Source of the DNA: a virus
Length of the DNA stretch: 12,461 bases
Direction: 5' to 3' (one strand)
Virus genome (UHGV): UHGV-0232909
Each line of letters starts with the position of its first letter. Within the stretch, counting starts at the first letter, position 1. Shown piece by piece: positions 1 to 12,461 of this stretch. The notes below the pieces were generated by a model, which was not told where the DNA came from, searched no databases, and was given only the letters and a program-made list of their open reading frames with translations. Made by a program: the position numbers and the translations under genes.

Positions 1-24
1 AAATGTGTACCGCGAGATCTGAAA

Positions 25-321
25 GTGAATGAAACGGATGCTGAATACCTGGTGCGTAAATTTGATGCGCTTGAAGCTAAATGTGCAGCACTGGAAAACA
101 AAGTAATACCAGTGTCAGCTGAACTGCCGCCAGCGAATGAAAGTGTTCTGTTATTTGATGCTAATGGAGAAGGCTGGCTGATTGGCTGGCGTTCTCTCTG
201 GTATACATGGGGGCAAAAAGAAACCGGAGAATGGCAGTGGACATTTCAGGTCGGGGACCTTGAAAACGTCAACATCACTCACTGGGCAGTAATGCCAAAA
301 GCACCGGAGGCTGGAGCATAA
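25..321 (+). CDS. DUF551-like phage early protein (start uncertain; frame is open to the window edge)
   Basis: 98-aa ORF beginning at a GTG; the same frame is open back to base 1, so the true start may lie upstream. Trp-rich C-terminal half ending ...ITHWAVMPKAPE resembles the DUF551 signature of lambdoid/P22-like early-region proteins. Stop TAA overlaps the next ATG (TAATG at 319-323). Confidence 0.55.
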   Translation: MNETDAEYLVRKFDALEAKCAALENKVIPVSAELPPANESVLLFDANGEGWLIGWRSLWYTWGQKETGEWQWTFQVGDLENVNITHWAVMPKAPEAGA

Positions 322-1130
322 TGACCACATTTACCGATAAAGAACTGATTAAAGAAATCAAAGAACGAATCAGCAGCATGGACGTGCGAGACAATGTTGA
401 GCGCCGTGCTTATGAAATTGCTCTGGCATCGCTGGAAGAGGATCCGGTGGCATGGCTGCATTCAGACAATGGCTTAGGTATTCCGGCAATAACCAGGAGT
501 AAAAACATTGCTGACAGTTGGTTATCAAAGGGCTGGTATGTTCAGCCGCTATATATAGCTAAGCCAGTGCCGGTGGTGCCAGATGCTCGTCCGTCTTTAA
601 ATAATGGCATAGTCGGTTTTGATGAAGGCTGGAACGCCTGCCGCGCTGCCATGCTCTATGGTGCCGTACCTGCAAGCCAGGCTTACAAGTTGCCACAAAC
701 GCAGTTTAAACAGGTTGCTGACCTCTACGAAATGCAATTTGATGACGGTCGCACTTGTGCCTTTCACACTGATGCGCAAAAGGCTGTGCAATGGCTTCAG
801 GCGTGCGACGGAAACAGGGTTCAGGAATACGTTAAGCTGGAACGATTGCAGAACGCACTGTCTGGCAACTCTCCGGTAACTCCGGATGGTTGGGTTATGG
901 TGCCGAAGAGACTAACAGCCGAGAACGGCGCTAAGGGGGCGCTATCCGGTGAATTTTCAGAAACTACGTTTATAAGCTGCCTGGAATGCTTTGGCGATGA
1001 TGATTGCGATACCTGTGACGGGAGCGGACGTATTGAAATTAAAGTGCCAGTCACGTGGTCGACCATAAAATCTATCTGGGATAAAGGTATCGAGTATTTT
1101 GCAGCAAAACCATCACAAGAGGTGAAGTGA
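321..1130 (+). CDS. hypothetical phage early protein with C-terminal CxxC-x5-CxxCxGxG zinc-ribbon motif
   Basis: 269-aa ORF with ATG at 321 and GGAG 4 nt upstream. C-terminus CLECFGDDDCDTCDGSGRIEIK is a DnaJ-like zinc-finger motif. Its stop TGA (1128-1130) overlaps the ATG of the exonuclease gene. No family recognised for the N-terminal 200 aa. Confidence 0.6.
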   Translation: MTTFTDKELIKEIKERISSMDVRDNVERRAYEIALASLEEDPVAWLHSDNGLGIPAITRSKNIADSWLSKGWYVQPLYIAKPVPVVPDARPSLNNGIVGFDEGWNACRAAMLYGAVPASQAYKLPQTQFKQVADLYEMQFDDGRTCAFHTDAQKAVQWLQACDGNRVQEYVKLERLQNALSGNSPVTPDGWVMVPKRLTAENGAKGALSGEFSETTFISCLECFGDDDCDTCDGSGRIEIKVPVTWSTIKSIWDKGIEYFAAKPSQEVK

Positions 1131-1702
1131 TGAACAACTTAATGATCGACCTTGAGACGATGGGGAAAAATAAGGATGCACCGATCGTTTCCATTGGCGC
1201 GGTGTTCTTCACTCCAGAAACCGGAGACATCGGACAAGAATTCTATACGGTTGTTAGCCTGGAAAGTGCTATGGGGCAAGGAGCTACACCTGACGGCGAT
1301 ACCATCCTGTGGTGGTTGAAACAAAGCCCTGAAGCACGAGCTGCAATCTGTATTGATGATACTTTGTCGATCAGCGATGCTCTCTCAGAACTAAATCATT
1401 TCATTAACCGGCACGCAGACAATACGAAATATTTAAAAGTCTGGGGTAACGGAGCCACCTTCGACAACGTAATTTTACGTGGAGCTTATGAGCGAGCAGG
1501 ACAAATCTGCCCGTGGGCATACTGGAATGACCACGATGTACGCACGATCGTTACGCTTGGGCGTTCCATCGGATTCGACCCCAAAATGGACATGCCTTTC
1601 GATGGCGAACGGCACAACGCCCTGGCTGATGCCCGTCATCAGGCAAAATATGTTTCCGCTATCTGGCAGAAATTAATTCCTGCCACCAGCACAGAATTAT
1701 GA
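1130..1702 (+). CDS. DEDDh-family 3'-5' exonuclease (DnaQ/RNase T-like), phage-encoded
   Basis: Exo I motif MIDLETMG (D-x-E), Exo II motif WGNGATFDNVIL, Exo III motif HNALADARHQAKY (H-x4-D) are all present in order. The ORF track starts at GTG 1127; ATG at 1130 with GAGG at 1118-1121 is the more likely start. Confidence 0.85.
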   Translation: MNNLMIDLETMGKNKDAPIVSIGAVFFTPETGDIGQEFYTVVSLESAMGQGATPDGDTILWWLKQSPEARAAICIDDTLSISDALSELNHFINRHADNTKYLKVWGNGATFDNVILRGAYERAGQICPWAYWNDHDVRTIVTLGRSIGFDPKMDMPFDGERHNALADARHQAKYVSAIWQKLIPATSTEL

Positions 1703-1738
1703 TTTTCCCGGGTGCAGCCGGTTTTGATGGAGAAAATT

Positions 1739-2020
1739 ATGAACACCTTGTTTTTACTGATGGCTGAATTCAATACCCCTAACATTGAACTCTCAGCAGT
1801 TAGCCAAAAGTACTTTGGCATGAGTCCAGCCACGGCAGAAGCAAAAGCAAACGCTTGTAAGTTGCCCGTTCCAACATATCGCATCGGCACATCACAAAAA
1901 GCAAAACGTTGCATCAATATTCAGGATCTTGCGGAATACATAGACAAAAGACGAGAAGAAGGACGTATCGAGTGGGAACAGGTCAGAACAAGCAAACAGA
2001 AGGGCAAAGAACATCACTAA
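1739..2020 (+). CDS. PrtN/excisionase-like small DNA-binding protein (putative Xis)
   Basis: N-terminus MNTLFLLMAEF... is typical of the PrtN / prophage excisionase-like family. GGAG at 1729-1732 sits 6 nt before ATG 1739; the longer ORF-track version starts at GTG 1712 without an RBS. Located upstream of, and in the same orientation as, the integrase. Confidence 0.65.
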   Translation: MNTLFLLMAEFNTPNIELSAVSQKYFGMSPATAEAKANACKLPVPTYRIGTSQKAKRCINIQDLAEYIDKRREEGRIEWEQVRTSKQKGKEHH

Positions 2021-2022
2021 AT

Positions 2023-2050
2023 AAAAAACCCGCCTAAAGGCGGGTTTTCA
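2023..2050. terminator. bidirectional rho-independent terminator
   Basis: AAAAAA-CCCGCC-TAAA-GGCGGG-TTTT: a perfect 6-bp GC stem (2029-2034 / 2039-2044) with a 4-nt loop, flanked by an A-run upstream and a T-run downstream, so it gives a U-tract on either strand. It lies between the convergent genes ending at 2020 (+) and 2068 (-). Confidence 0.7.
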
Positions 2051-2067
2051 AAAAGCACCAGCTATGA

Positions 2068-2241
2068 TCATGCTGCTTTGCGACGACGAAGCTTACCCTG
2101 CTGCTCTTTACCAGAGACAGTAGCGTGAGTGAACGCATTATGAGCAGCCTTCATCAGAACTTCAACAGCAGCACCCATACCTGCGAATGCTTTCATTGTG
2201 TCGAACTTAACCTGTGGCTTGGTTGCTTTTTGATCTTCCAT
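2068..2241 (-). CDS. small basic-tailed protein (57 aa), third gene of the minus-strand accessory cassette; absent from the ORF track
   Basis: Hand translation of the minus strand: MEDQKATKPQVKFDTMKAFAGMGAAVEVLMKAAHNAFTHATVSGKEQQGKLRRRKAA. A strong SD (AGGAG) sits 7 nt upstream of the ATG (ATG = complement of 2239-2241). Stop at 2068-2070, immediately followed by the bidirectional terminator. Confidence 0.45.
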   Translation of the reverse strand: MEDQKATKPQVKFDTMKAFAGMGAAVEVLMKAAHNAFTHATVSGKEQQGKLRRRKAA

Positions 2242-2280
2242 AGAAAACTCCTGAAGTTATACCGAAACAATTCCTGTTGT

Positions 2281-2700
2281 TTACTCATCATCAATAGATG
2301 ATACGCAATATTTATTTTTAAATTTAAGGTTCTTTGGCGTAACTTCATCAGAGATATCAAAACCGTCCAGAATTCTATTGAATGTAGCTTCTGGCATATC
2401 ATCATGAACAGAAATCTCACCCGATCGCTGCTTTCTAACCATGTTATCCACTCGCCAAATTATAGCTTCAGCGTAAACAACATAACTTGGATGCTTGATA
2501 AAGCGATGATCACCAGAATTCAAGATGCAAGACGGATCGTGGGGGACACCATCCTTGATACTAGAAATATTAACAACTAAAACACAATAACAATCGTTAA
2601 CGGGGTAATAAACAGGATCATTACAAATCACATGAAGATGATTGCATGGCCCAGTTGGGGCAAGCACAGTTCCTTTCCTGTATGGCTGATAATCCGTCAT
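2281..2700 (-). CDS. unknown 139-aa protein translationally coupled to the Panacea-domain gene (candidate toxin/effector)
   Basis: ATGA overlap with the upstream gene (stop/start share 2697-2700). No recognised family. Cys/His-rich N-terminal half (CNHLHVICNDP...DCYC...DPSC...DHRFIKHPS) and acidic C-terminus (SSIDDE). AT-rich codon usage unlike the flanking phage genes. Confidence 0.65.
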   Translation of the reverse strand: MTDYQPYRKGTVLAPTGPCNHLHVICNDPVYYPVNDCYCVLVVNISSIKDGVPHDPSCILNSGDHRFIKHPSYVVYAEAIIWRVDNMVRKQRSGEISVHDDMPEATFNRILDGFDISDEVTPKNLKFKNKYCVSSIDDE

Positions 2701-3269
2701 GATAATTGCAAAGAAAATTCCTTAAGTTTCTGAGATTCTTCCATTTTGCCAATTATGCGATTAGCCTCATCCTCGCTTTTACCCTCACTGATCAGCATTT
2801 CTTTCAGGTCTATAGGCTTACGAGAATTGCCAGGATCGTGCCACTCTGGACAAACGCTTTCTAAATGCGTCATATTTGCGAGATCAAATCGGTTCATATG
2901 CCCATACCGAGAATAGATTTCATCTAAAATCCGGATATCTGCACGACTCAATTCATCAAAGACCTCGTCTGCATCCATTTCCCTCGGATCTGAACGCAAC
3001 GATACATTATGCCCGTTCGTCTCTATCAAGTTGTACCAGTAGTCACCAATGCCTTCAGCCTTACCGCGAATCAAGTTCAGCGTATTCGACATGACTGGTC
3101 CAAATTTCATAGAGTAAAGGCTATCTTCGCCGATCATCCTGCCATGCTTCAAAATCGACTGGCGGTTAGACAGATAGAGCAACTTCATCAATTTCAGATA
3201 TGCCATGCGCCCACCTCGCTTAAGAAGTAGGTATGCAGCCATTTGAGCTACTTTTTCTTCGCAAAACAT
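2697..3269 (-). CDS. Panacea-domain protein (SocA/PanA-like; DUF4065), putative antitoxin
   Basis: 190-aa ORF. The segment AAYLLLKRGG-RMAYLKLMKLLYLSN...KFGPV matches the Panacea-domain core pattern (K-L-x-K-L-L-Y ... G-P-V). GAGG lies upstream of the ATG (complement of 3267-3269). First gene of a three-gene minus-strand operon. Confidence 0.75.
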   Translation of the reverse strand: MFCEEKVAQMAAYLLLKRGGRMAYLKLMKLLYLSNRQSILKHGRMIGEDSLYSMKFGPVMSNTLNLIRGKAEGIGDYWYNLIETNGHNVSLRSDPREMDADEVFDELSRADIRILDEIYSRYGHMNRFDLANMTHLESVCPEWHDPGNSRKPIDLKEMLISEGKSEDEANRIIGKMEESQKLKEFSLQLS

Positions 3270-3660
3270 ATAAGAAACCTCAAAGATAGTGAACTTTATA
3301 ATTATTCTCGATACTTCATGGGTTGCTTCATCACCAACACGAGCTTCTTATGGTGTGCCCACTTGGGCCTAAGCAACCAGTTACCTCGTTTGTCAAGTTT
3401 ATAGCTGGCTTTAACCATGGTCAATTGAAGTGATGAGCAAATGATGCTTTCTAAGAATAACAGGTTCCCAATAGGCTCCCACAAAGTGTATAACTAGTTG
3501 TTTTTCAAAAACGGTACATCCTATCGAGCATAGGAGCAATGCTAAACCGAGAATTCCAGTAAACACCAGTTTTTTCAGGCATCACGCTGGTTTGATTAAT
3601 TTTTTGTGTTTCATGATTATCGTGCATTTTTGAACATTTCAGGCTATTTTTCTCGCATTA

Positions 3661-3696
3661 GGTTCCCGCACAGGTTCCCACGTTTTATGGGAACCC
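3661..3696. promoter_or_regulatory. cluster of GGTTCCC(A) repeats immediately upstream of int (candidate operator or integrase arm-type sites)
   Basis: GGTTCCC at 3661-3667 and 3673-3679 (direct) and GGGAACC at 3689-3695 (inverted), giving the palindrome GGTTCCCA-cgtttta-TGGGAACC. A second pair, CAGGTTCCCA / AGGCTCCCA, lies at 3461-3480. The int RBS (GAGG, 3705-3708) and ATG (3716) follow directly. Confidence 0.3.
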
Positions 3697-3715
3697 GAAA
3701 TAACGAGGTCGTGTA

Positions 3716-4813
3716 ATGGCGTACTATAACATAGAGAAACGACTAAAATCCGATGGCACACCACGCTATCGCTGTAATGTGATTATCAAAGAAAAAGGTG
3801 TTATCACTTACAGGGAAAGCAAAACATTCCCTAAACATGCTCATGCCAAAACATGGGGCACACAGAAAGTGATGGAATTAGATCTATATGGCATTCCATC
3901 ATCAAATGCAGTTGACGGACTTACAGTCCGTGACTTACTACACAAATATTTAAATGACCCAAATGCCGGAGGTAAAGCAGGCCGTACTAAAAGATATGTG
4001 CTGGAACTGCTTATGGATAGTGACATCTCCGCGATCAAACTATCTGAACTGACAGAAAATGACGTAATTGAACATTGCAGGCTAAGAAACAACGCTGGCG
4101 CAGGTCCAGCAACAGTCAGCCACGATGTTAGTTATCTTGGCAGTGTTCTGGATGCGGCCAAACCTGTATACGGAATTAATTACACATCAAACCCGGCGAA
4201 AAGTGCTCGTCCATATCTACTTAAACTTGGTTTGATTGGTAAATCAAACCGTCGTAATCGTAGACCAGCATCTGATGAACTGGACATGCTCATTGAAGGC
4301 CTTCAACAACGATCTACTCATAAATGCTCAAAAATTCCGTTCGTTGATATCCTCAAATTTTCTGTGTGGTCCTGTATGCGAATCGGAGAAGTATGCCGGT
4401 TACGATGGGAAGATCTCGACCAGGAACAAAAATCTATACTCGTAAGAGACAGGAAAGATCCACGCAAAAAGGAAGGCAACCACATGAAAGTAGCCTTGCT
4501 TGGGGAAGCCTGGGATATCGTCCAACGACAGCCCAAAAAATCGGAATTCATTTTTCCATATAACAGCACTTCTATTACTGCGGGATTTCAGAGGGTAAGA
4601 AGCAAATTAGGTATTAAGGATCTGCGATACCATGATTTGCGTAGAGAAGGGGCAAGTCGCTTATTTGAGGCTGGTTTTAGTATTGAGGAAGTAGCCCAGG
4701 TTACAGGGCATCGTTCATTAAACGTGCTATGGCAGGTATATACCGAACTGTATCCGAAATCTTTACATAATCGTTTTGAAGAGCTCCAAAGGAGCAGAAA
4801 TAAGACCCCTTGA
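3716..4813 (+). CDS. int: tyrosine-type site-specific integrase
   Basis: 365-aa ORF with RBS GAGG 7 nt upstream. Carries the conserved tyrosine-recombinase boxes: MRIGEVCRLRWEDLD (Arg box), HDLRREGASRL (H-x-x-R) and a C-terminal GHRSLNVLWQVYTELY with the candidate catalytic Tyr. Confidence 0.9.
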   Translation: MAYYNIEKRLKSDGTPRYRCNVIIKEKGVITYRESKTFPKHAHAKTWGTQKVMELDLYGIPSSNAVDGLTVRDLLHKYLNDPNAGGKAGRTKRYVLELLMDSDISAIKLSELTENDVIEHCRLRNNAGAGPATVSHDVSYLGSVLDAAKPVYGINYTSNPAKSARPYLLKLGLIGKSNRRNRRPASDELDMLIEGLQQRSTHKCSKIPFVDILKFSVWSCMRIGEVCRLRWEDLDQEQKSILVRDRKDPRKKEGNHMKVALLGEAWDIVQRQPKKSEFIFPYNSTSITAGFQRVRSKLGIKDLRYHDLRREGASRLFEAGFSIEEVAQVTGHRSLNVLWQVYTELYPKSLHNRFEELQRSRNKTP

Positions 4814-4861
4814 CACTGTTTATCCATACAGTTAAAAATAATACTGTATACAAACACAGTA
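4810..4861 (+). promoter_or_regulatory. SOS-regulated promoter: TTGACA -35 hexamer plus two LexA boxes (CTGT-N8-ACAG)
   Basis: TTGACA at 4810-4815 overlaps the int stop codon. LexA-like box 1 is caCTGTttatccatACAGtt (4814-4833). Box 2 is taCTGTatacaaacACAGta (4842-4861), a near-consensus SOS box lying between the promoter and the RBS AGAGGG (4863-4868) of the DinI-like gene. Confidence 0.6.
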
Positions 4862-4874
4862 TAGAGGGACTTTT

Positions 4875-5123
4875 ATGCGTATTGAAATCTGCATAGCCAA
4901 AGAAAAAATGACTAAAATGCCAACCGGTGCTGTGGATGCGTTAAAGGAAGAATTAACCCGACGCATCAGTAAACGTTATGACGATGTAGAGGTGATCGTA
5001 AAAGCCACCAGCAACGATGGCCTTTCTGTTACACGCACCGCAGATAAGGATTCTGCAAAAACTTTTGTTCAGGAGACTCTGAAAGATACCTGGGAATCTG
5101 CTGACGAGTGGTTTGTTCACTAA
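4875..5123 (+). CDS. dinI: DinI-family DNA-damage-inducible protein (phage-borne paralogue)
   Basis: 82-aa protein [31 protein letters not shown]...[16 protein letters not shown] aligns along its whole length with E. coli DinI from memory (MRIEVTIAK...QETWESADDWFV). Preceded by LexA boxes and a good RBS. Confidence 0.85.
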
Positions 5124-5190
5124 TTAACACGTAAAATCGGTAACGGCTGGAAATCATTCAATAATCGCACTATCGAAAGTTCGCCAGCCA

Positions 5191-5226
5191 GCCGCAGCAC
5201 GTTCTTGCATACGACGTGGCTGCGGC
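5191..5226. other. extended imperfect stem-loop between the DinI-like gene and the invertase remnant
   Basis: GCCGCAGC (5191-5198) pairs with GCTGCGGC (5219-5226); the inner CACGT/ACGTG also pair, giving a stem of about 12 bp with one bulge and an 11-nt loop. No clear U-tract on either strand, so it is not a canonical intrinsic terminator. Confidence 0.35.
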
Positions 5227-5266
5227 TTCCAACATTAGACAAATAACTCTTTAAATTGCTTTTAAA

Positions 5267-5635
5267 TTATTTCGTTTGAATGCCAGTAACAGGAAATCGT
5301 TTATATAGGGTTGATAGCCCAACGTTATAGATACGTGCAACATAACGCCGTGATTTCCCTGCCGCTATGAGCGCTCCCATCTGTTGCCACTGCTCGTCGC
5401 TAAACTTCGGTCTACGCCCACCAATCCGGCCTTTGGATCTGGCAATAGCCAAACCAGCTAAAGTTCGCTCGCTATTCAAATCAGATTCATACTGCGCAGC
5501 AGAAAGAATATTACGGAAATTATAGCGACCACTTGCTGTTTTCAGGTCTACGCCATCTGTAATACTCCGAAAATTAACACCTTTTTCGTGCAGATTTTGA
5601 AACATCAATAGCGCATGCAGCACATTTCTCCCTAA
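5267..5635 (-). pseudogene. pin: N-terminally truncated serine DNA invertase (Pin/Gin/Hin family) remnant
   Basis: The translation ...PLGRN-MLHALLMFQNLHEKGVNFRSITDGVDL...SKGRIGGRRPKFSDEQWQQ...YNVGLSTLYK matches the C-terminal two thirds of Pin/Gin (LGRSMKHLISLVGELRERGINFRSLTDSIDT...NKGRIGGRPPKL...ALSTLYKK). The roughly 70 N-terminal residues, including the catalytic Ser region, are absent; similarity stops near 5636 and no ATG-initiated full-length frame exists. Confidence 0.8.
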
Positions 5636-5641
5636 GGGGAA

Positions 5642-6001
5642 TTGTCTGCTGCTGGGGTTAGCGGTGGCGCTGCATCTGCTTCAGGATACATCACCATTCC
5701 GATGATTATTAATGGAGCAAGGCGGGTCTTATACATCCAATGGGGGGGATTTACAGGAACTACAGATAGCTCCGGCTCCAACGGAATATATGAAACCTCA
5801 AATATCACCGTCACCTGGACAGTTGCTTTCCCCAATGCGGTTTTCCAGGTGATAACAGGCGGTTCATCTGATGTTAGTGGTGTCGGGCAGCAAGAGATGG
5901 CATGGAGTCTGGGCAAAACAAAAACTAATGGGATTTTTGGTTTTCAATGCCGGACACCAAACGCATCGATGACTGGCTCATATCTTGTAATTGGTTATTA
6001 A
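5642..6001 (+). CDS. tail-fibre C-terminal (variable-domain) cassette lacking an N-terminal anchor domain; silent alternative segment
   Basis: Gly/Ser/Thr-rich beta-type sequence typical of phage tail-fibre distal domains. The frame opens at 5636 exactly where invertase homology ends on the other strand; only a TTG start (5642) is available. Directly followed by a tfa gene, the usual Sv'-U' arrangement of Mu G / P1 C / e14 invertible segments. Confidence 0.55.
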   Translation: MSAAGVSGGAASASGYITIPMIINGARRVLYIQWGGFTGTTDSSGSNGIYETSNITVTWTVAFPNAVFQVITGGSSDVSGVGQQEMAWSLGKTKTNGIFGFQCRTPNASMTGSYLVIGY

Positions 6002-6014
6002 ACGAGGACATCAC

Positions 6015-6491
6015 ATGAGATTTTCAGTTAGCACCCAATCATTCTACGATGATAATTACGAGGAAAACGCAGTAGTCAACGATTTACCCTCAGATGTTCA
6101 GGCGATAGATGATGAGCAATATGCTAGTTTTTTTAATGCAATAAATAGTGACCGGGTGGTTTATCTGGTTGCTGACGAATTCACGATTTCTCAACCCCGC
6201 CCCGATAAATACTATTCATGGGATATGACAAGTAAGACCTGGGCTATGACTGATGCTGCCGTAGCACAAAAGTCGGCAGACCTGATAGCTGATGCTGAGC
6301 TACGGAGAACAACGTCGTTATCAGCAGCAGGTATCGCAATATCCCCGCTGCAAGATGCCGTTGATCTGGGTATGGCTACAGATGTAGAAACGAGGCGACT
6401 GACAGAATGGAAAAAATATCGGGTATTGCTGATGCGTATTGATACATCAAAAGCCCCCGATATCGAATGGCCATCAGTACCGGTCAGTTGA
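6015..6491 (+). CDS. tfa: tail fibre assembly protein (Tfa/gpU-like chaperone)
   Basis: C-terminal region [50 protein letters not shown] matches the conserved Tfa C-terminus (APLQDAADL...[22 protein letters not shown]). ATG at 6015 with GAGGA 6 nt upstream; the ORF-track start at 5991 is a TTG. Confidence 0.8.
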   Translation: [158 protein letters not shown]

Positions 6492-6648
6492 CAAATGGAT
6501 TAGTAGACGATGATAAGAAGGTAACGTAGCGTTCGTCATCATCGTCTATTTCTTCAATGCCTGGATAAACAGTTTCATCTTGCGGACTGTAGAAAACCGC
6601 GCTGATCTCCTTTTTCGTGGAGTCTTTAAAAAGAACATAGATTTTCAT
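6484..6648 (-). CDS. small acidic ORF (54 aa) translationally coupled to the tail-fibre gene; absent from the ORF track
   Basis: Hand translation: [54 protein letters not shown]. Its ATG overlaps the tail-fibre stop (ATGA at 6646-6650). Its 3' end overlaps the convergent tfa gene by 8 nt (6484-6491). It occupies the position where a cognate tfa would be expected. Confidence 0.4.
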   Translation of the reverse strand: MKIYVLFKDSTKKEISAVFYSPQDETVYPGIEEIDDDDERYVTFLSSSTNPFVN

Positions 6649-7679
6649 CAGAATGAGTACCCCGTTGAATAAATTGTTGATGCCGTTGGTGTGCCGCCAA
6701 ACAAAATCTGGTAATAAATTTTCTGCGGCTCAGCAATCATCAAGTTTGAGAAAACAGATGAAATACCAGAGTTATTATTCCCCTGGGTTCGTAAGCCCAA
6801 CGGGTAGGATTTTGACGATACGGCAAATGAGTTATTTGTTGCTGGCGCTGTAGAGTTAATTAACCCCCAGCCTTCCATTGTTTTGGCGTTTTTAGGAATG
6901 GCTGAAGATACAGAAAGCTCAGTCAGTGTAGAAACCGTGTTTGTTACAGTGACAAGAGGTTGCTCTGGCGTGTTAATTTGCCTTCCCATCATCTCACCGA
7001 CAGTGAACTGGCTTGATGCTACTCTCCACACGCTAACCAATGCAGATGCCGTATAGCCTGCTGGTAGATTTGCACCGCCATAAATTTCTGGCGCGGTGGT
7101 CGTCGTTGCATTCACTGCAAGGAGTGCTGTTGCCCCGTTCGTCGGATTTAAAATTGCGTACAGGGCAATAAATCCAGCTGTCGGAACAGTCCCTGTGTCC
7201 ATACCTCCCGCGCCGGTTGTGCCGAGATTAATCGTCTTATTGAATGCACTTAGCCGGTATTGCTGCCCGGTGCTCGTCTCTACGATCAATTCATCGGCTG
7301 TAAAGGTTGCTGTCGATGATGCGGCGGCGATGCTCATACGCGCATTTCTGGATTGACCAACAACACCCGAAAACGATTCTCGCAATTGAAGGTTTTCGAG
7401 AGCCGTTTTCACCGTGCCATCCGATTTGATATCGCCAAACGGATTCTTGCGGCTTAACAGCAGCGCACGAAGCGCGGTAAGCAGCTGGTCGTGCCGCGCC
7501 TTCTCCAGACTGGCACCGGATGCCTCAACAACGCTACAAAGTTCTTCCTGCAACATGTCAAAGTAGTCATCATCCAGATCGGTGGCAGGGGTGCCGGTCT
7601 GGGGGTTACCACGGGTAAAACCGTTCTTACCCGCGCCGAACTTATCCTTCTGCGCGGTTTTCGTGTCTATACGATGCAT
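6648..7679 (-). CDS. tail fibre protein (complete, 343 aa)
   Basis: Conserved phage tail-fibre N-terminus [47 protein letters not shown]... followed by a Gly/Thr/Ala/Ser-rich distal domain. Last gene of the baseplate operon, in the position of Mu S / P2 H. Confidence 0.85.
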
Positions 7680-7682
7680 GGA

Positions 7683-8267
7683 TTACTCCGGATATTTAAA
7701 AATTACGTAGGTATGCGACGGGCAGAGTTTGTTAAGCACACACTCGACAACGGTGTCGCCCCAGATACGCAGTGCGGAATCACAGGGATCGCCACATGTC
7801 ATCCAGGTGGTGTTGGTGGTGGTTGGCATGTTGACCTGCCAGTAATACCGCCATTCCGGCGCATTCACCGCGTCAGTACAGGCCGATGAGCAGGTGAACG
7901 TGCTTTTGTCGTATCGCGTGATGGTGGCATCTGGTCTGCCCAGGGCAGCAAGCTGTGCAAGATAAAAATCCTCGTTGATGCCGCCCGCCAGGTTAACCTT
8001 CGCATCCAGCCGTTGCTGACGCTGGCGAAGGGTCTGCGTTCCCGCCGGAATACATTCATCCGGCAGACCGCACAGACGCTCCCAGCGGTTTATCAGTTCA
8101 GTGGTGGTGCGCGGATCCAGCTCCCGCATCAGGGCATCCGCACGCTGATGAACACGGGTTAATGACGGTGCCGCACCGGCAATCGCCGGATCGCTGGCTG
8201 ACCACGCCGGACCGGGCGGCAACAGTGCCGATAACAGGCGGATGTAATCATCGTTTGTCACGTCCAT
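7683..8267 (-). CDS. Mu gp48-like baseplate/tail protein (DUF2313, YmfQ-like)
   Basis: 194-aa protein in the position and size class of Mu gp48 / e14 YmfQ, directly upstream of the tail-fibre gene. Cys-rich C-terminal third. Overlaps the upstream gene by 10 nt. Confidence 0.8.
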
Positions 8268-9316
8268 GAAATCGTCCCCAGTACCGCCAGTTCGTTTTTC
8301 GCAATGGAGATATTGTCCACCGGTGCAAGCAACTGATGGCTGTATTCCCCGTTCGCACCGGAAATCGCCTCACTGATACGCGATACCTTCAGTTCTCCCT
8401 GCGGATAACCATCACGCAGCAGGAACGAACGCAACTCCGCGGTAATGGCAGCCCGTATTTCCGGTGTGTCCGGCGTCACGCGGATATGAAAATCCACCGT
8501 ATGTGCCACCGGCCTGAATACATACAAATCAGAGCCTGCCACCGGGGCCAGTGGCCCGATATGTTGTCTTGCTGCCGTTTCCGTTGATTCTTCCGGAATG
8601 GGATTAATCAGGTCACTGCTGGCAATCATCACACCGACAGTTCCCGTTCCCATCCAGTGACGGTATGTCCATGCGCGGGTAATGCCGGGCACTTCTTTAG
8701 CCCAGACGACATAGTCCCCGTCAGCCCCGCCCTGCGGCGTCCAGTAATACCGCTCAATGACGCGGGCGCGCCACGTTTCCAGATCTTCTGTATCAAATCC
8801 GCCTGTCAGGGTGTCAGTCACACCGGAAGACGGCAGACCATTCACCGGCGTGACCAGGATTAATGCCGTACCATCGTCAGCGTTACCGACCGCGCCTGTA
8901 GTTGAGCAAGTGATCGGCACACGCAGGACACCACCGGAGCTGGTTGCATCGGCAGTTGCCGTGTACTGAACCAGGTCATCGCGCTGAATCACGCTCCCGG
9001 CAGTCACCTTCAGGCCATCGCTGACACCTTCCCAGCGCATATACCCGCTGGCAGCCGTGGCCCCCTTGCGCGGACACCGTTTCATCGCAGCATGTCGCGC
9101 CAGCCAGGACTCATCGCACAGGTCAGGCAGCATATTCATTGCCAGATAATCGATGTACCCGTAAACCGTATGCAGCGCCGCCGCATACACCTTTGCCCGC
9201 ACGTCTTCATCCATGCGCCGGAGCGTGTCGCTGACGTCCAGCCTGGCGAATAAATCGTTACGGAGCATACTGATATTTTCTGCCAGCGTCGGGCGCTGAA
9301 ATTCACTGTCCGCCAT
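8258..9316 (-). CDS. baseplate J-like protein (Mu gp47 / P2 gpJ family)
   Basis: 352-aa protein in the conserved order gp46-gp47-gp48. ATG at the complement of 9314-9316. Overlaps both neighbours, indicating translational coupling. Confidence 0.85.
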
Positions 9317-9731
9317 GCGTTATCGCACTCCACAGATCATCAAAAGAAATCATTACCGGTCCGTCACGACGCCAGAGAGTGATACTGTTACCCAGTTCAT
9401 TAATCCCGGTGCGGTGGATATCCAGATCAATACGGGACACCACGCCGTCATCAATCATCCATTGCAGGCATTCGCGGATATACCCCCTTACCGTCAGCAC
9501 CAGCTGATTGGTCAGTTTGCTGCGCTGAAGCAGCCACAGTCGGGAGCCGTAACGGTCATTCTGTACCGCAGGCCAGGTATCCCCCCACCATCCCATCGGG
9601 ACGTCGGCGTTGTCATCAGGCTCCGCCCGCCGCCAGGTAAACAGGGAAATCACCACGGCGCGGGTCAGCGGATCCAGCGGTGCGCTGGCGCAGGTGCGTT
9701 TACCGTTCACCGTCAGCCACAGTTCCATCAT
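9303..9731 (-). CDS. Mu gp46-like baseplate protein (GP46 / gpW-gp25 class)
   Basis: 142-aa protein between the gpV-like and J-like genes. Start ATGATGA overlaps the stop of the upstream gene. Confidence 0.8.
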   Translation of the reverse strand: MMELWLTVNGKRTCASAPLDPLTRAVVISLFTWRRAEPDDNADVPMGWWGDTWPAVQNDRYGSRLWLLQRSKLTNQLVLTVRGYIRECLQWMIDDGVVSRIDLDIHRTGINELGNSITLWRRDGPVMISFDDLWSAITHGGQ

Positions 9732-10276
9732 GCCTCCATCGCTTTATCAGGTTTGTCGGTGTTACTGCCCTGACCGTTCTCTCTGTGACGATGCCCGTTA
9801 TAGGCAAGCCGCATCGCTGACATGGTGGTGCCGCTGGAGTCGCACAGGTCTTTCACCTGTCCTGTCACTTCCAGGTCCATTTCAAAACGTGCTTTAGGTG
9901 AATTGCGAAACGTGATCGTTTTACCTGCACCGTCCACCACGATCCCCTCCCGGGTCAGCGTCACGGACTGCCCCTGATCGTCATAGACAGCCACCTCACC
10001 CGTCTGCAGCCCTTTCAGGCGGTAGCGCCGGTCCGACACCGTAACAACCACCGCATGAGAACGGTCGCCATCCGGAAACAACACCACCGCTTCCGCACCG
10101 CTGTTTGCCCTTGCGGTAAAACCGTAGGGTTCAAGATGTTCAACCCCGGCTTTGGGTTCACCGGCAATCAGGGACACATCCACGGTCTGACATTTCGTGG
10201 CGGCACTGATGCTTTTCACCACGGCCCGCCCAATCAGGCCGAGGAGTTGTCGCTGCATGGCTTCAATCGTCCTCAT
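9728..10276 (-). CDS. baseplate assembly protein V / spike (Mu gp45-like)
   Basis: 182-aa protein with the size and position of Mu gp45 / P2 gpV. TGATG overlap with the upstream gene at 10274-10278. Confidence 0.8.
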   Translation of the reverse strand: MRTIEAMQRQLLGLIGRAVVKSISAATKCQTVDVSLIAGEPKAGVEHLEPYGFTARANSGAEAVVLFPDGDRSHAVVVTVSDRRYRLKGLQTGEVAVYDDQGQSVTLTREGIVVDGAGKTITFRNSPKARFEMDLEVTGQVKDLCDSSGTTMSAMRLAYNGHRHRENGQGSNTDKPDKAMEA

Positions 10277-11355
10277 CAGAACGGGTCCTCCTGTACTCTG
10301 GCTTTTTTCTTTTTCCGCGCGCCGGGGGCTTCGGGTTCAGGCAGATAAGCATCAGGTGGGCCGACACGGATTTCCGTCAGGGTGCCGTTCTGGTCCTGAG
10401 TAAACGTGACTTCCGAAACAAGCAGTTCGGTATTGTCGAAACCACAGACCGGATCAAAGACAATCACCCGCTGGTTGGGCTGCCACAGCGTACCGTTACC
10501 CTGTCGCCAGCCCTGCACCACATAGGTGGTTTCATCCGTCCGCGCCGCCCGTTGTCGGGCTTCAAAGTCCGCACGGGCAATACAGCCTGCTCCCGTAGCC
10601 TGCCCTGTCTGCCTGATATACATCGGACGGTAACGGGCAATAAATGCGTCCTCTGTGCGGGCCCGCAGCGCGGTGGTGGTGGCCTCACCGAAATCATCGT
10701 CGTTTCCGGCACGCTGCCCCGCCACCTGGTAAACAGAAAATCGCTCCCGGATACTCTTCTCCGTATCGCAGGAAAGGATGTTTTCCCCGAGTACCAGCGC
10801 AGTATGTGCCCGCGTTGAGCCAATACCGCCAATCACCAGCCTGCCGTGCGGGTCGTCGTAAGCCAGCGCCTGCTGCTGACCGAGTATTTTGTTGATTACC
10901 TCAATCACCGTTTCACCGTGATCAGGCTGAACATCAGGAATAACACCCGACGGCGCACCGCTGTTCACCACCTCAATGCCGAAAGGCGCAGCAAGCGCCT
11001 GCGCAATCTGCACCAGCGAGCGTCCGTTAAACTGTGTCGGTTCGGCTGCACAGTCAATCAGGTCAGCCGTCAGACTACGTCCGGCAATACCGGTGCTGAC
11101 CGAACGGGCATCGTAACGAACGGGCGTCGCCTCCACCCAGCCGGTGATCACCAGCTCATCACCAATCAGCACCTCCACTTTTGAACCGTTTTTAATGCGC
11201 GGCTGAAGCGTGGTGATACCCTCATCTCCCGGCCACTGGCGAGTGATCTCCACACTGAAATCCCGCGCCAGCCGTTCAATACCGGCACCGATGCGCACCG
11301 ATGTCCAGCCATTCCACTCCCGGCCATTTACCCGTAGCGTGACGTTATCGTTCAT
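10276..11355 (-). CDS. baseplate hub protein (Mu gp44/P, phage late control gene D family)
   Basis: 359-aa protein in the position of Mu P / P2 gpD, upstream of the gpV-like gene. Basic C-terminal tail (ARKKKKARVQEDPF). 4-nt overlap with the upstream gene. Confidence 0.8.
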   Translation of the reverse strand: MNDNVTLRVNGREWNGWTSVRIGAGIERLARDFSVEITRQWPGDEGITTLQPRIKNGSKVEVLIGDELVITGWVEATPVRYDARSVSTGIAGRSLTADLIDCAAEPTQFNGRSLVQIAQALAAPFGIEVVNSGAPSGVIPDVQPDHGETVIEVINKILGQQQALAYDDPHGRLVIGGIGSTRAHTALVLGENILSCDTEKSIRERFSVYQVAGQRAGNDDDFGEATTTALRARTEDAFIARYRPMYIRQTGQATGAGCIARADFEARQRAARTDETTYVVQGWRQGNGTLWQPNQRVIVFDPVCGFDNTELLVSEVTFTQDQNGTLTEIRVGPPDAYLPEPEAPGARKKKKARVQEDPF

Positions 11356-12461
11356 TGCACTGGCACCTTCAGAGGGATCACCGGCACAAAGCCGGGATGC
11401 GTAATGGCATTACGCCGGATAATGTCCGCGTCACGCGCCGCGTTATCAAACCAGGTCGCCGCCAGCACCAGCGCGGGTAAAACCTCATCCGGCGTGCGCT
11501 GAATGATCCGTGCAGACTGTTCAAGGCGCGTGTTGATATCCGCATTCAGATCTGCTTTCACCCGGCGCAGCGCCAGAAACAGCGCATCACTGGTTGTACG
11601 GGACAACTCCTTATCAATTGCCGTATTCAGTGTGTCGCGAATGTCAGTCAGTTCTTCCCACGTCGGCAGGTCAACTGTGTTTTTCACCGCCGGTGCATTG
11701 TTCAGTGCCGGATGCGTGACGGAAGGCCAGCCAGTGCTCTGCGCAGGTGTTGTTGCCTGCCCCACTGCGGAATTCTGCATCACCGCGGAAGTTGTTGGCG
11801 CAGGCAATCGGGTGACGGCATACGCCGCTTCGCTGATTGCGGTCGTACGAAGGGTGCTGGCAACCACGTTACGCTGCTGCGTCGCCGTGGCGGTGGTTTT
11901 ACTGTCCGTTTTCCAGACGCCGCGCGGTTGCAGATCGCTGCCGAGGCTGACACCGGAAAGCGTTTTGATCATGGTGACCAGGTCGCTGGCGTTACCATAA
12001 AGGCGTTTCCCGGTACGCCACATTTTCTGCACCTGCTCAACGAAATTTTTGCCTGACGATGGCGGCGGCAGAAGTACCGAGATATCCCCCTGCAACAGCC
12101 TGGCGGCATCCGATACGGCAGAATCCACCACTTTCATCGCATCAGAAACATACCCCAGCATTATGCTGGCATTACCGATAACGTCGTTCTGCACGAAATC
12201 CGCCACACCATCGATACTGAAACCGCTGAAGCTGTCACTGATGCAGTCATCCAGTGCAGAACAGGATGACATCAGCGTCTGCGCCGTCGCCGCACCTGAT
12301 GTGGGGTAAGAGAGTTCTCCTGCTTCGACAAACTTCAGGTCAAAGCGGACAATACGCCCTTCACTTTTCGATGTGCTGACCCGAACTTCCCCGTCAACAC
12401 AGACTTTCAGCTCACCATATGTCGGGTGGACAAGCGTGCCGGGACCGGGTTTATTCAGCGC
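11352..12461 (-). CDS. Mu gp43/N-like DNA-circulation (tail-associated) protein, 5'-partial: N-terminus lies beyond the window
   Basis: The frame continues open upstream of the first ATG (12272) to the window edge (hand translation ...VRFDLKFVEAGELSYPTSGAATAQTLMSSCSALDD...). Ser/Thr/Ala-rich central region. Gene order gp43-gp44-gp45 as in Mu-like tail modules. Confidence 0.6.
   Translation of the reverse strand, partial: ALNKPGPGTLVHPTYGELKVCVDGEVRVSTSKSEGRIVRFDLKFVEAGELSYPTSGAATAQTLMSSCSALDDCISDSFSGFSIDGVADFVQNDVIGNASIMLGYVSDAMKVVDSAVSDAARLLQGDISVLLPPPSSGKNFVEQVQKMWRTGKRLYGNASDLVTMIKTLSGVSLGSDLQPRGVWKTDSKTTATATQQRNVVASTLRTTAISEAAYAVTRLPAPTTSAVMQNSAVGQATTPAQSTGWPSVTHPALNNAPAVKNTVDLPTWEELTDIRDTLNTAIDKELSRTTSDALFLALRRVKADLNADINTRLEQSARIIQRTPDEVLPALVLAATWFDNAARDADIIRRNAITHPGFVPVIPLKVPVQ

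Follow-up and report, generated by a model that had tools for sequence, protein, structure and literature searches.

In this 12,461-nt stretch of viral DNA (hereafter, the window), an integrase gene lies internally rather than at one end, with an excisionase-like gene and a small cassette on its left and an invertase remnant and tail genes on its right. This arrangement raises the question of whether the DNA is a phage in its unintegrated form or part of a chromosomal prophage, and where its attachment site lies. An earlier note, made from the sequence alone, had suggested that the window spans an intact attP and had named two candidate intervals, 3481-3660 and 4814-5266. Based on comparison with lysogens, isolated phages, and empty target sites, we conclude with high confidence that the window represents an SfV-like myovirus in its unintegrated form and that positions 3462-3696 are the intact attP belonging to its tyrosine integrase module (dusA'-int-dinI), which is specific for dusA. 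The host of this phage type is E. coli, and temperate SfV-like phages of this kind are already well described.

Gene content of the window

Pfam and PHROGs verified the gene order that the earlier note had read from the open reading frames: exo, PrtN-type xis, Panacea cassette, int, DinI, truncated pin, fibre, and Mu-type baseplate (Table 1). From position 7389 onward, the window has 97-98% nt identity to phages SfV, SfI, SfII, and SfIV.

Table 1. Coordinates of features in the window.
Feature	Position	Strand	Evidence or remark
Rv2179c-like 3'-5' exonuclease (exo)	1127..1702	+	PF16473 E=4e-75; early leftward-operon gene upstream of xis
PrtN-family protein	1712..2020	+	PF11112 E=4e-23; phrog_1300 'excisionase' E=8e-40
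Variable cargo slot, xis-attP interval	2068..3269	-	57-aa ORF, 139-aa ORF, Panacea/SocA-domain protein
139-aa ORF	2281-2700	-	
Panacea/SocA protein	2697-3269	-	PF13274 E=2e-19
P-arm, two tandem putative arm-type repeats	3462..3480	+	AGGTTCCC 3462-3469, AGGCTCCC 3473-3480
Phage-borne dusA'	3505..3627	-	start codon at 3627; attP-form ORF stops after 40 codons
attP core/crossover TCGAGCAT	3524-3531		8 bp; sole block identical in attP, attL, attR, and attB
P'-arm putative arm-type repeats, in dusA'/int divergent promoter region	3660..3696		AGGTTCCC 3660-3667 and 3672-3679 (+); inverted copy 3689-3696
Tyrosine integrase, dusA-specific (dusA-associated integrase family, DAI), intact	3716-4813	+	PF00589 E=1.6e-20
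Two perfect LexA boxes over dinI promoter	4816-4831, 4844-4859		promoter scan and LexA-box search
DinI	4875-5123	+	PF06183 E=1e-19
Strong hairpin between convergent dinI and pin'	5185..5230		fold z-score -3.7
pin', serine invertase remnant	5267..5634 (gene 5267-5623)	-	lacks codons 1-65
Tail-fibre cassettes, Mu/SfV-type baseplate and DNA-circulation genes	5635..12461	-	Pfam; remain linked to int in prophage
gp53-like fibre C-terminus	5642-6001	+	
Tail fibre assembly protein	5991-6491	+	
Tail fibre	6648-7679	-	
Mu gp48, baseplate J, gp46, gp45, and gp44-like genes	7683-11355	-	

The PrtN-family protein is probably the excisionase (recombination directionality factor), a role suggested by its profile match and by gene neighborhood: Yersinia phage YeP1 and Ralstonia phage GP4 each have a PrtN-type gene just upstream of a related int, and the GP4 gene bears the annotation excisionase. 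In YeP1, the same exo/PrtN pair directly precedes attP. The cargo genes between xis and attP form a toxin-antitoxin-like pair, and the content of this slot varies among relatives, with a YafO toxin pair in E. coli GPEC620-622, a different 534-nt ORF in phage mEp460 and strain CX04, and no cargo in YeP1.

Location of the attachment site

Complete E. coli genomes show window 3524-12461 next to dusA and window 1-3630 next to yjbM/zur. Segments 1-3523 and 3524-12461, contiguous in the window, are 36-40 kb apart in lysogen chromosomes, and the whole window was found at one place, with at least 80% coverage, in none of 5,426 genomes. The window itself contains no host DNA; its sole host-like stretch is the phage's own dusA' copy. 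ARAGORN identified no tRNA or tmRNA within the window, leading us to reject a tRNA-type attachment site, and no Rfam family matched at gathering thresholds.

We aligned the four recombination junctions, using the window as attP, strain 19-5 as attL, MB53 as attR, and K-12 as attB. The arms swap at TCGAGCAT: to its left, the window resembles the attR side of chromosomal prophages, and to its right, the attL side, which bears out the suggestion that the window spans an intact attP. With the empty dusA site of K-12, the window has just the core and a diverged dusA 5' stretch (81-83% identical) in common. Of the two candidate intervals, 3481-3660 holds the core and shares both the 8 bp and the dusA stretch with K-12, whereas 4814-5266 has no junction with host DNA. 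The core TCGAGCAT matches the one defined experimentally for phage 1720a-02 (PMC6328086), and the end of the ETEC H10407 island at 4723914 (island 4684277..4723914; Farrugia et al. Table S1) coincides with window 3524. Elements of the DAI family are described as bounded on each side by an att repeat of 21 bp that is semi-conserved (Farrugia et al. 2015, PMC4482086). In our comparison, 19 nt around the core agree among the window (TCCTATCGAGCATAGGAGC), K-12 (TCCAGTCGAGCATTGGTGC), and the published C. rodentium attB (TCCAGTCGAGCATGGGAGC; PMC6328086).

By analogy with SfV, in which the order is xis-int-attP-gtr-tail fibre, attP could have been expected downstream of int, as in lambda and SfV, which here means the interval that separates int from the invertase and tail genes (4814-5266). 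There is practically no chance that it lies there. The interval holds dinI, two LexA boxes, and a hairpin; integrated prophages match it colinearly at 100% identity (window 3524-5634 corresponds to 6001-8111 of prophage L001); and a host junction inside it was never seen. Colinearity in lysogens and the four-way alignment refute this placement. The same comparison removes an argument that the earlier note had made for attP, namely, the adjacency of int, dinI, pin, fibre, and baseplate genes. That order is identical in the integrated prophages L001 and L007, where the tail and baseplate genes beside dusA-int are likewise unchanged; int/tail-fibre adjacency survives integration because attP is upstream of int. 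The diagnostic attP junction is the one between cassette and int, not the one between int and tail fibre, and integration parts xis and the cassette from int.

The right boundary of the integration module falls within the second interval. The int-dinI module common to lambdoid phages ends at ~5197-5239, and the matches to mEp460, cdtI, 2H10, and Lys8385Vzw stop at 5225-5239. Beyond it, pin' has a 274-bp deletion relative to the related contig L008 (junction between 5634 and 5635), and the only Pfam matches left in it are the HTH_7 domain and positions 81-144 of the resolvase profile. The gene has lost its first 65 codons, along with most of the crossover site next to them, and the locus does not qualify as a Din-family (Pin/Gin/Cin) invertible switch. 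In 5560-7720, a fuzzy search allowing ≤6 mismatches and an inverted-repeat search identified no credible partner crossover site for Pin and no long inverted repeat.

Replacement of the dusA 5' end

Within dusA', positions 3532-3627 are identical to K-12 dusA at 78 of 96 nt, whereas the sequences upstream of the dusA start codon in phage and K-12 are unrelated (22/88). In lysogens, dusA' is fused in frame to give an annotated intact DusA of 345 aa, whose first 32 residues include 8 that differ from K-12. The counterpart at the other boundary is annotated in MB53 as a displaced dusA fragment at attR, and the SKA5 and CX04 records label dusA' itself a dusA fragment. In strain 19-5 and metagenome contig L007, dusA (-) and int (+) diverge from an 88-bp spacer.

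These observations suggest how integration would proceed. Int (3716-4813) would carry out strand exchange inside TCGAGCAT (3524-3531) with the identical 8 bp located ~100 nt into host dusA. Together with the region upstream of it, the phage's dusA' copy (3532-3627) would then supply the new 5' end, and presumably the promoter, of a hybrid full-length dusA at attL, placing this gene beside int, dinI, pin', tail fibre, and baseplate. At attR, 36-40 kb away, the native dusA 5' end would be displaced and would lie beside the Panacea cassette, xis, and exo. A consensus scan of the 3628-3715 spacer identified no sigma-70 promoter for int or dusA'.

Integrase

The earlier note had allowed that int might be a non-functional pseudogene copy; our results contradict this. 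The gene is intact, its product is 100% identical to the Int of phage SKA5, and the catalytic residues of XerA (RHRH tetrad and nucleophilic tyrosine) have their aligned counterparts in R222, H306, R309, H332, and Y342. Pfam and NCBIfam assigned the catalytic domain only, with no arm-binding domain assigned to residues 1-190.

In the integrated state, the 5' ends of int and dusA adjoin, and the element gives dusA a new in-frame 5' end and leaves the original at the far boundary. We place the integrase in the DAI clade, not from a tree but from the match with the element of ETEC H10407 listed by Farrugia et al., which has 98.5% nt identity and matching end coordinates. DAI integrases are closest to Rci (Farrugia et al. 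2015, PMC4482086), and the annotation of the mEp460 Int cites cd00796 INT_Rci.

Repeats flanking the core

Short repeats distinct from the core lie on both sides of it, with five AGGTTCCC-type copies at fixed offsets (-62 and -51 on the left; +136, +148, and +165 on the right). The exact 8-mer AGGTTCCC occurs three times in the window, against 0.26 expected, and all three occurrences are inside attP. Homology to mEp460 and CX04 restarts exactly at 3463. Our scan of close relatives in IMG/VR returned only loci ≥89% identical, which are of no use for assessing co-variation; we obtained divergent relatives by tblastn of phage records. In YeP1, AGCACCCC is present in five copies (0.08 expected) at offsets of -61, -50, +136, +148, and +164, the last one inverted, and in Pseudoalteromonas phage C5a, AGTCACCC is found at +137 and +148. 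In the alignment, the repeat copies are in register, and judging from these sequences, the repeat co-varies with the integrase in YeP1 and C5a. Ralstonia phage GP4, whose Int is 35% identical, has TTTGCTACA-type repeats upstream of int; a pattern search found no dusA'-like ORF there, and we did not count this phage as support.

The AGGTTCCC-type repeats are probable arm-type sites to which Int would bind, as in lambda. More broadly, we lean slightly toward the view that dusA-specific integrases are heterobivalent and lambda-like, acting on an attP with five arm-type sites of fixed geometry, three of which overlap the dusA'/int promoter, and that the 8-mers co-evolve with the integrase lineage. 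If so, the arm sites would explain how phages with one common 8-bp core have separate Int specificities, and Int might autoregulate both int and the hybrid dusA. Arm-type sites are not mentioned in the DAI papers that could be searched, and the term "arm-type" appears zero times in Farrugia et al. (PMC4482086).

State and origin of the window DNA

Relatives of the window are found in both forms. Phage SKA5, phage mEp460, and a closed circular 37,667-bp replicon in strain CX04 have the attP form, as does a metagenome sibling (L009; ENA ERZ27264781 contig k141_3085) with 8 mismatches in 12,461 nt. In another metagenome sibling (L007; 99.65% identity), the same phage is integrated at dusA, and a third metagenome contig (L011) terminates exactly at the attP core. 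Among 80 IMG/VR loci with the window Int, 63 have the attL-at-dusA form, with host dusA to the left of the core. The presence of the same lineage in integrated (L007) and unintegrated (L009) form implies recent recombination activity.

As the earlier note had recognized, contiguity across attP could also arise in a tandem prophage, in which case the window would be the internal junction of a head-to-tail double lysogen, flanked by the true attL and attR at a distance of one genome length in each direction. Free or excised and tandem-prophage forms are both present in public assemblies. In E. coli GPEC620-622, the same protein accessions are repeated 39,141 bp apart, and cassette, dusA', int, dinI, pin, and fibre are contiguous between the copies. 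However, such junctions are rare, with one chromosome contiguous among 5,426 genomes against hundreds of single lysogens, and long-read assemblers can also produce tandem copies from excised circles. Contigs in the attP form recur in metagenomes (L008, L009, L053, and L089), where free phage is plausible. We regard the tandem arrangement as unlikely and virions or excised circles as the more likely origin of the window; the sequence of the attP junction is identical either way.

Two further explanations would deny the window an active attP of its own. An assembly chimera, in which the attR- and attL-side arms of one prophage were joined across the repeated dusA 5' segment, is suggested by the similarity of the phage and host dusA 5' segments and by the nearest contigs being short-read metagenome assemblies (k141 names). 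Nevertheless, the dusA 5' copies are just 81-83% identical, their sole exact block of 8 bp is far below the collapse length at k=141, and two isolated phages, SKA5 and mEp460, show the same junction, as does a closed circular replicon, making a chimera extremely improbable. A decaying, non-mobile prophage remnant with a dead int would agree with the 274-bp deletion that truncates pin and with related contigs (L008 and L010) in which a large deletion has joined a LexA-like gene to what is left of a sheath gene. Such a remnant is nonetheless hard to reconcile with a full-length Int that lacks none of the catalytic residues and is the same protein as in an isolated phage (SKA5), with an intact attP core, arms, and xis, or with a lineage that is both integrated and unintegrated; we consider it very doubtful. 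An intact attP in unintegrated phage DNA is the reading that we retain.

Implications

For annotation, the contig should be treated as phage-form DNA with dusA as its integration target, not as a chromosomal prophage end. Lysogeny would place a hybrid dusA under what is presumably a phage promoter. The common assumption that attP is downstream of int needs correction here, as int stays beside the tail-fibre genes and is parted from xis. Both dusA-specific integrases and this prophage family are already published, and the locus reveals no new biology; the modest addition is comparative evidence for what appear to be co-varying arm-type sites in DAI attP regions, and these sites could guide the design of orthogonal dusA-targeting integration vectors.

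Comparison with known systems

The closest described element is the DAI prophage of ETEC H10407 (Farrugia et al. 2015, PMC4482086, Table S1), with 98.5% nt identity over window 3524-12461. As in other DAI elements, int adjoins the dusA 5' end, dusA receives a replacement 5' end, and attL and attR are imperfect direct repeats. Compared with the H10407 element, the window is unintegrated, has another tail-fibre cassette (5635-7373), and has a truncated pin. The Stx2 phage 1720a-02 (KF030445.1) carries the same dusA'-int-dinI module (95.8% nt identity over 3524-5121) and the same core. For that phage, an in-frame dusA fusion was reported, the dusA attB and attP were verified, and regeneration of attP on induction was established by sequencing (Balasubramanian et al. 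2019, PMC6328086). However, 1720a-02 is a lambdoid Stx-converting phage with other structural genes, and its host is Citrobacter rodentium.

SKA5 (OR670062.1) and mEp460 (JQ182728.1) are phage-form genomes in which cassette, dusA', int, and dinI are contiguous, as in the window. SKA5 has 99.0% identity over 86% of the window, but its pin is intact and its fibre cassettes are different, whereas mEp460 has lambda-type tails and another cargo ORF in the xis-attP slot. In SfV, the Mu-type baseplate and tail genes (orf15-20) are colinear with those of the window at 97.4% nt identity, and early genes match at the left end of the window. However, the xis-int pair of SfV is a different one, and its attP sits downstream of int, ahead of gtrABV; in the window, this integration block is swapped for exo, PrtN, cassette, attP (dusA'), int, dinI, and pin', and there are no gtr genes. 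The comparative evidence also points to a lambda-like organization, with a short core overlap, putative arm-type repeats in both arms (two and three here), and a small gene nearby for the probable excisionase. Unlike in lambda, attP is upstream of int, such that integration puts the whole prophage between int and xis; integration takes place within a protein-coding gene and replaces the 5' end of that gene; and the probable recombination directionality factor is of the PrtN type.

Integration at dusA and position of attP

Among 5,426 complete E. coli genomes, no one-block match of the window at ≥80% coverage was found, and matches break at position 3524. In strain 19-5, window 3524-12461 adjoins dusA (tyrB-alr-dnaB-qorA-pspG-dusA followed by int-dinI-pin-fibre-baseplate); in strain MB53, window 1-3630 is found 36-40 kb off, beside yjbM, zur and dinF, with a dusA 5' fragment, annotated as a pseudogene, at the far-side junction. 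Integration parts int from the exo-xis-cassette arm, and because lysogens carry the window split at 3524, int lies at one prophage end, still beside dinI, pin and the tail genes.

We aligned the window (attP) with strain 19-5 (attL), MB53 (attR) and the empty K-12 site (attB). The sole exact block common to all four is TCGAGCAT at window 3524-3531, where the arms swap; this supports the earlier proposal that the window spans a phage-form attP. One interval put forward for attP, 3481-3660, was right, as it holds this core. The other, 4814-5266, is ruled out, since it runs colinear with integrated prophages at 100% identity; dinI, the LexA boxes and a hairpin lie inside it. The accompanying reasoning, that a prophage int lies far from the tail genes, needs correcting: since attP is located upstream of int, the lysogen keeps int linked to the tail genes.

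Positions 3532-3627 (minus strand), on the right side of the core, are a phage copy of dusA codons 1-32, identical to K-12 dusA at 78 of 96 nt; the stretch upstream of its start codon shows no relation to host sequence (22/88 identical). In lysogens, this phage dusA' is fused in frame to give a full 345-aa DusA. The window's dusA' ORF ends at 3505, 40 codons in, because the phage P arm comes next.

Three other loci had unusual junctions or contexts. The E. coli GPEC620-622 junction (L005, 21150-21260) has ~37 extra host-like dusA bases left of the core, GCAGACGCAAAAATAGCGGCAATGTCTGTCCGTCCAG, making its dusA' fragment 132 nt; this points to an attP variant whose homology to the target is longer, or to a past imprecise or homologous exchange. 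An IMG/VR locus (IMGVR_UViG_2558860274_000005; Int 99% identical) lacks both dusA and the phage P arm on the left side of TCGAGCAT (junction …GTACTGTGCGCCCAG/TCGAGCAT, the slash marking the join) and may be a secondary integration site. In NZ_CP126947.1, a 204,838-bp record of APEC E18005 distinct from the main chromosome, a ParB/RepB/Spo0J gene adjoins dusA, int, dinI and pin (194092-196198); this is an unusual replicon setting for an element integrated at dusA, or possibly the result of a split assembly.

Gene content

An ORF map with Pfam, PHROGs and NCBIfam scans bore out the gene order stated in the earlier note; neither tRNAs nor Rfam families were found within the window.

Features of the window (arm-site offsets counted from the core start)
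Feature	Position	Strand or orientation	Offset	Remark
DUF551 protein	25-321
Ea22-like protein	321-1130
Rv2179c-type 3'-5' exonuclease	1127-1702
PrtN-family protein	1712-2020			PHROGs family label "excisionase"
Cassette: 57-aa ORF, 139-aa ORF, Panacea/SocA-domain protein	2068-3269	minus
Putative arm site 1	3462	direct	-62
Putative arm site 2	3473	direct	-51
Putative arm site 3	3660	direct	+136
Putative arm site 4	3672	direct	+148
Putative arm site 5	3689	inverted	+165
Tyrosine integrase	3716-4813
LexA boxes (CTGT-N8-ACAG)	4816-4831, 4844-4859			directly after int stop codon
DinI	4875-5123
Strong hairpin	about 5185-5230			between convergent dinI and pin'
Truncated serine invertase pin'	5267-5623
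Tail-fibre and fibre-assembly genes	after pin'
Mu/SfV-type gp48, baseplate J, gp46, gp45, gp44-like and DNA-circulation genes		minus

The integrase is full length, and R222, H306, R309, H332 and Y342 align with XerA catalytic residues. The dinI promoter (TTGACA-N18-AAAAAT) is overlapped by both perfect LexA boxes, so the prophage-borne DinI is probably SOS-induced. The int-dinI module common to lambdoid phages stops at about 5197-5239, in the hairpin region.

Cargo varies at a hotspot, 2068-3462, that separates the PrtN-type xis from the first arm repeat. This slot holds the Panacea/SocA protein and 139-aa partner in the window, SKA5 and MB53, a YafO toxin pair in GPEC620-622, and an unrelated 534-nt ORF in mEp460 and CX04; in Yersinia phage YeP1 it is empty. 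No Pfam family was found for the 139-aa ORF.

Relative to metagenome contig L008 (12046-12319), pin (window 5267-5641) is cut by a clean 274-bp deletion with its junction at 5634/5635, which takes out codons 1-65 and the region upstream, along with most of the 22-bp Din-type crossover site TTGAAAGGTTGGTTTAGGGGAA, of which only AGGGGAA is left. Five independent metagenome/Logan contigs (L007, L009, L011, L012 and L014) share the deletion, which therefore marks a real lineage and not an assembly error. Since the fibre gene has no partner inverted site, what is left of the inversion switch is a decayed remnant. The tail-fibre host-range region (5635-7373) is a mosaic, in which 5635-6472 encodes a P2-like fibre C-terminus and assembly-protein cassette (93.8% identical to E. 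coli CFSAN064036, 89% to Klebsiella phage 4LV2017), and 6473-7373, for the distal portion of the 343-aa fibre, had no close nucleotide match among the phage or complete E. coli collections.

Putative arm-type sites and directionality factor

AGGTTCCC occurs in three copies in the window, all inside attP, versus 0.26 expected; counting one-mismatch and inverted copies, putative arm sites total five. Three comparisons favour a functional role for these sites. mEp460 and CX04 differ from the window in the cargo that separates xis from attP, and their homology to it restarts exactly at 3463; the GPEC620-622 variant keeps GGTTCCCA with diverged flanks. YeP1 (Int 68% identical) has the window's core TCGAGCAT and a dusA' copy, and its 8-mer differs: AGCACCCC lies at -61, -50, +136, +148 and +164 (inverted), five attP copies, compared with an expectation of 0.08 for the locus. 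In Pseudoalteromonas phage C5a, whose Int is 54% identical, AGTCACCC is found at +137 and +148, and the left arm carries degenerate copies. All of these copies fall in register when aligned. Because the geometry is fixed and the motif changes with the integrase, the five repeats would, from this comparison, be arm-type Int-binding sites. In the databases scanned, Int residues 1-190 were given no arm-binding domain. Within the searchable literature, the term "arm-type" is absent from the two main DAI (dusA-associated integrase) papers, and the co-varying repeats are a small, possibly undescribed detail.

A PrtN-family gene lies immediately before attP in YeP1, without cargo between, and another, which bears an excisionase annotation, precedes attP in Ralstonia phage GP4; these positions support the PrtN-family protein as a candidate directionality factor. 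GP4 (L098, 900-1200; Int 35% identical) also has a repeated TTTGCTACA-type motif: a pair of copies ~290 bp upstream of int, and three more, two direct and one inverted, just before it. No dusA'-like ORF was recognised in GP4, and the arm geometry may not be limited to members that target dusA.

Source of the phage-form junction

We favour free or excised phage DNA as the source of the window. Strain CX04 has a closed circular replicon of 37,667 bp with the attP junction, and contig L009 (ENA ERZ27264781, 13,480 bp) is an attP form that differs from the window at 8 of 12,461 bases and has one contig end in common with it. The window's tail-fibre protein is seen on metagenome contigs of both states, attP and integrated: contig L007 is the phage of the window (99.65%) integrated at dusA, and L011 ends exactly at the core, as would an assembly that forks at an att site. 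Of 80 IMG/VR loci carrying the window Int, 63 are attL forms and three are attP forms (two from metagenomes; the third is mEp460).

The same junction could lie inside a tandem lysogen, as in the GPEC620-622 chromosome, where two prophage copies 39,141 bp apart have an attP-type junction between them; as the window carries no flanks, this source keeps some probability, though a rather low one. A chimeric join is unlikely because identity between the two dusA 5' copies is just 81-83%, and at the crossover they have only 8 exact bases in common.

In two independent contigs (L008 and L010, 1-1716), Dam and a LexA-like gene are directly fused with a tail-sheath gene that is truncated (255 aa), which implies a ~17-kb deletion over the lysis, terminase and head genes. 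Despite this deletion, L008 is an attP form, and may be a defective yet still excising derivative.

Comparison with known systems

The window element is a member of the published DAI system, near-identical to published members and thus already known. DAIs insert at a single site in the dusA 5' end; the element brings a new 5' end, and the original one forms the far boundary (Farrugia et al. 2015, PMC4482086). Table S1 of that study lists an ETEC H10407 "phage lysogen" at 4684277..4723914, and window 3524 maps exactly to H10407 4723914 (98.5% identity). The module of Stx phage 1720a-02 is 95.8% identical to window 3524-5121. This phage integrates 100 bp into dusA at attB TCCAGTCGAGCATGGGAGC, with a 7-base core, and carries an in-frame phage dusA'; attP was regenerated in 0.44% of reads during infection, and the prophage orientation, with int at attL, was called "noncanonical" (Balasubramanian et al. 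2019, PMC6328086). Phage-form records with the window's junction include mEp460 and SKA5; SKA5 matches 86% of the window at 99.0% identity, and the Int at 100%. In place of the xis-int-attP-gtrABV block of SfV, the window has the dusA-type module, whereas the baseplate genes of the two are still 97% identical.
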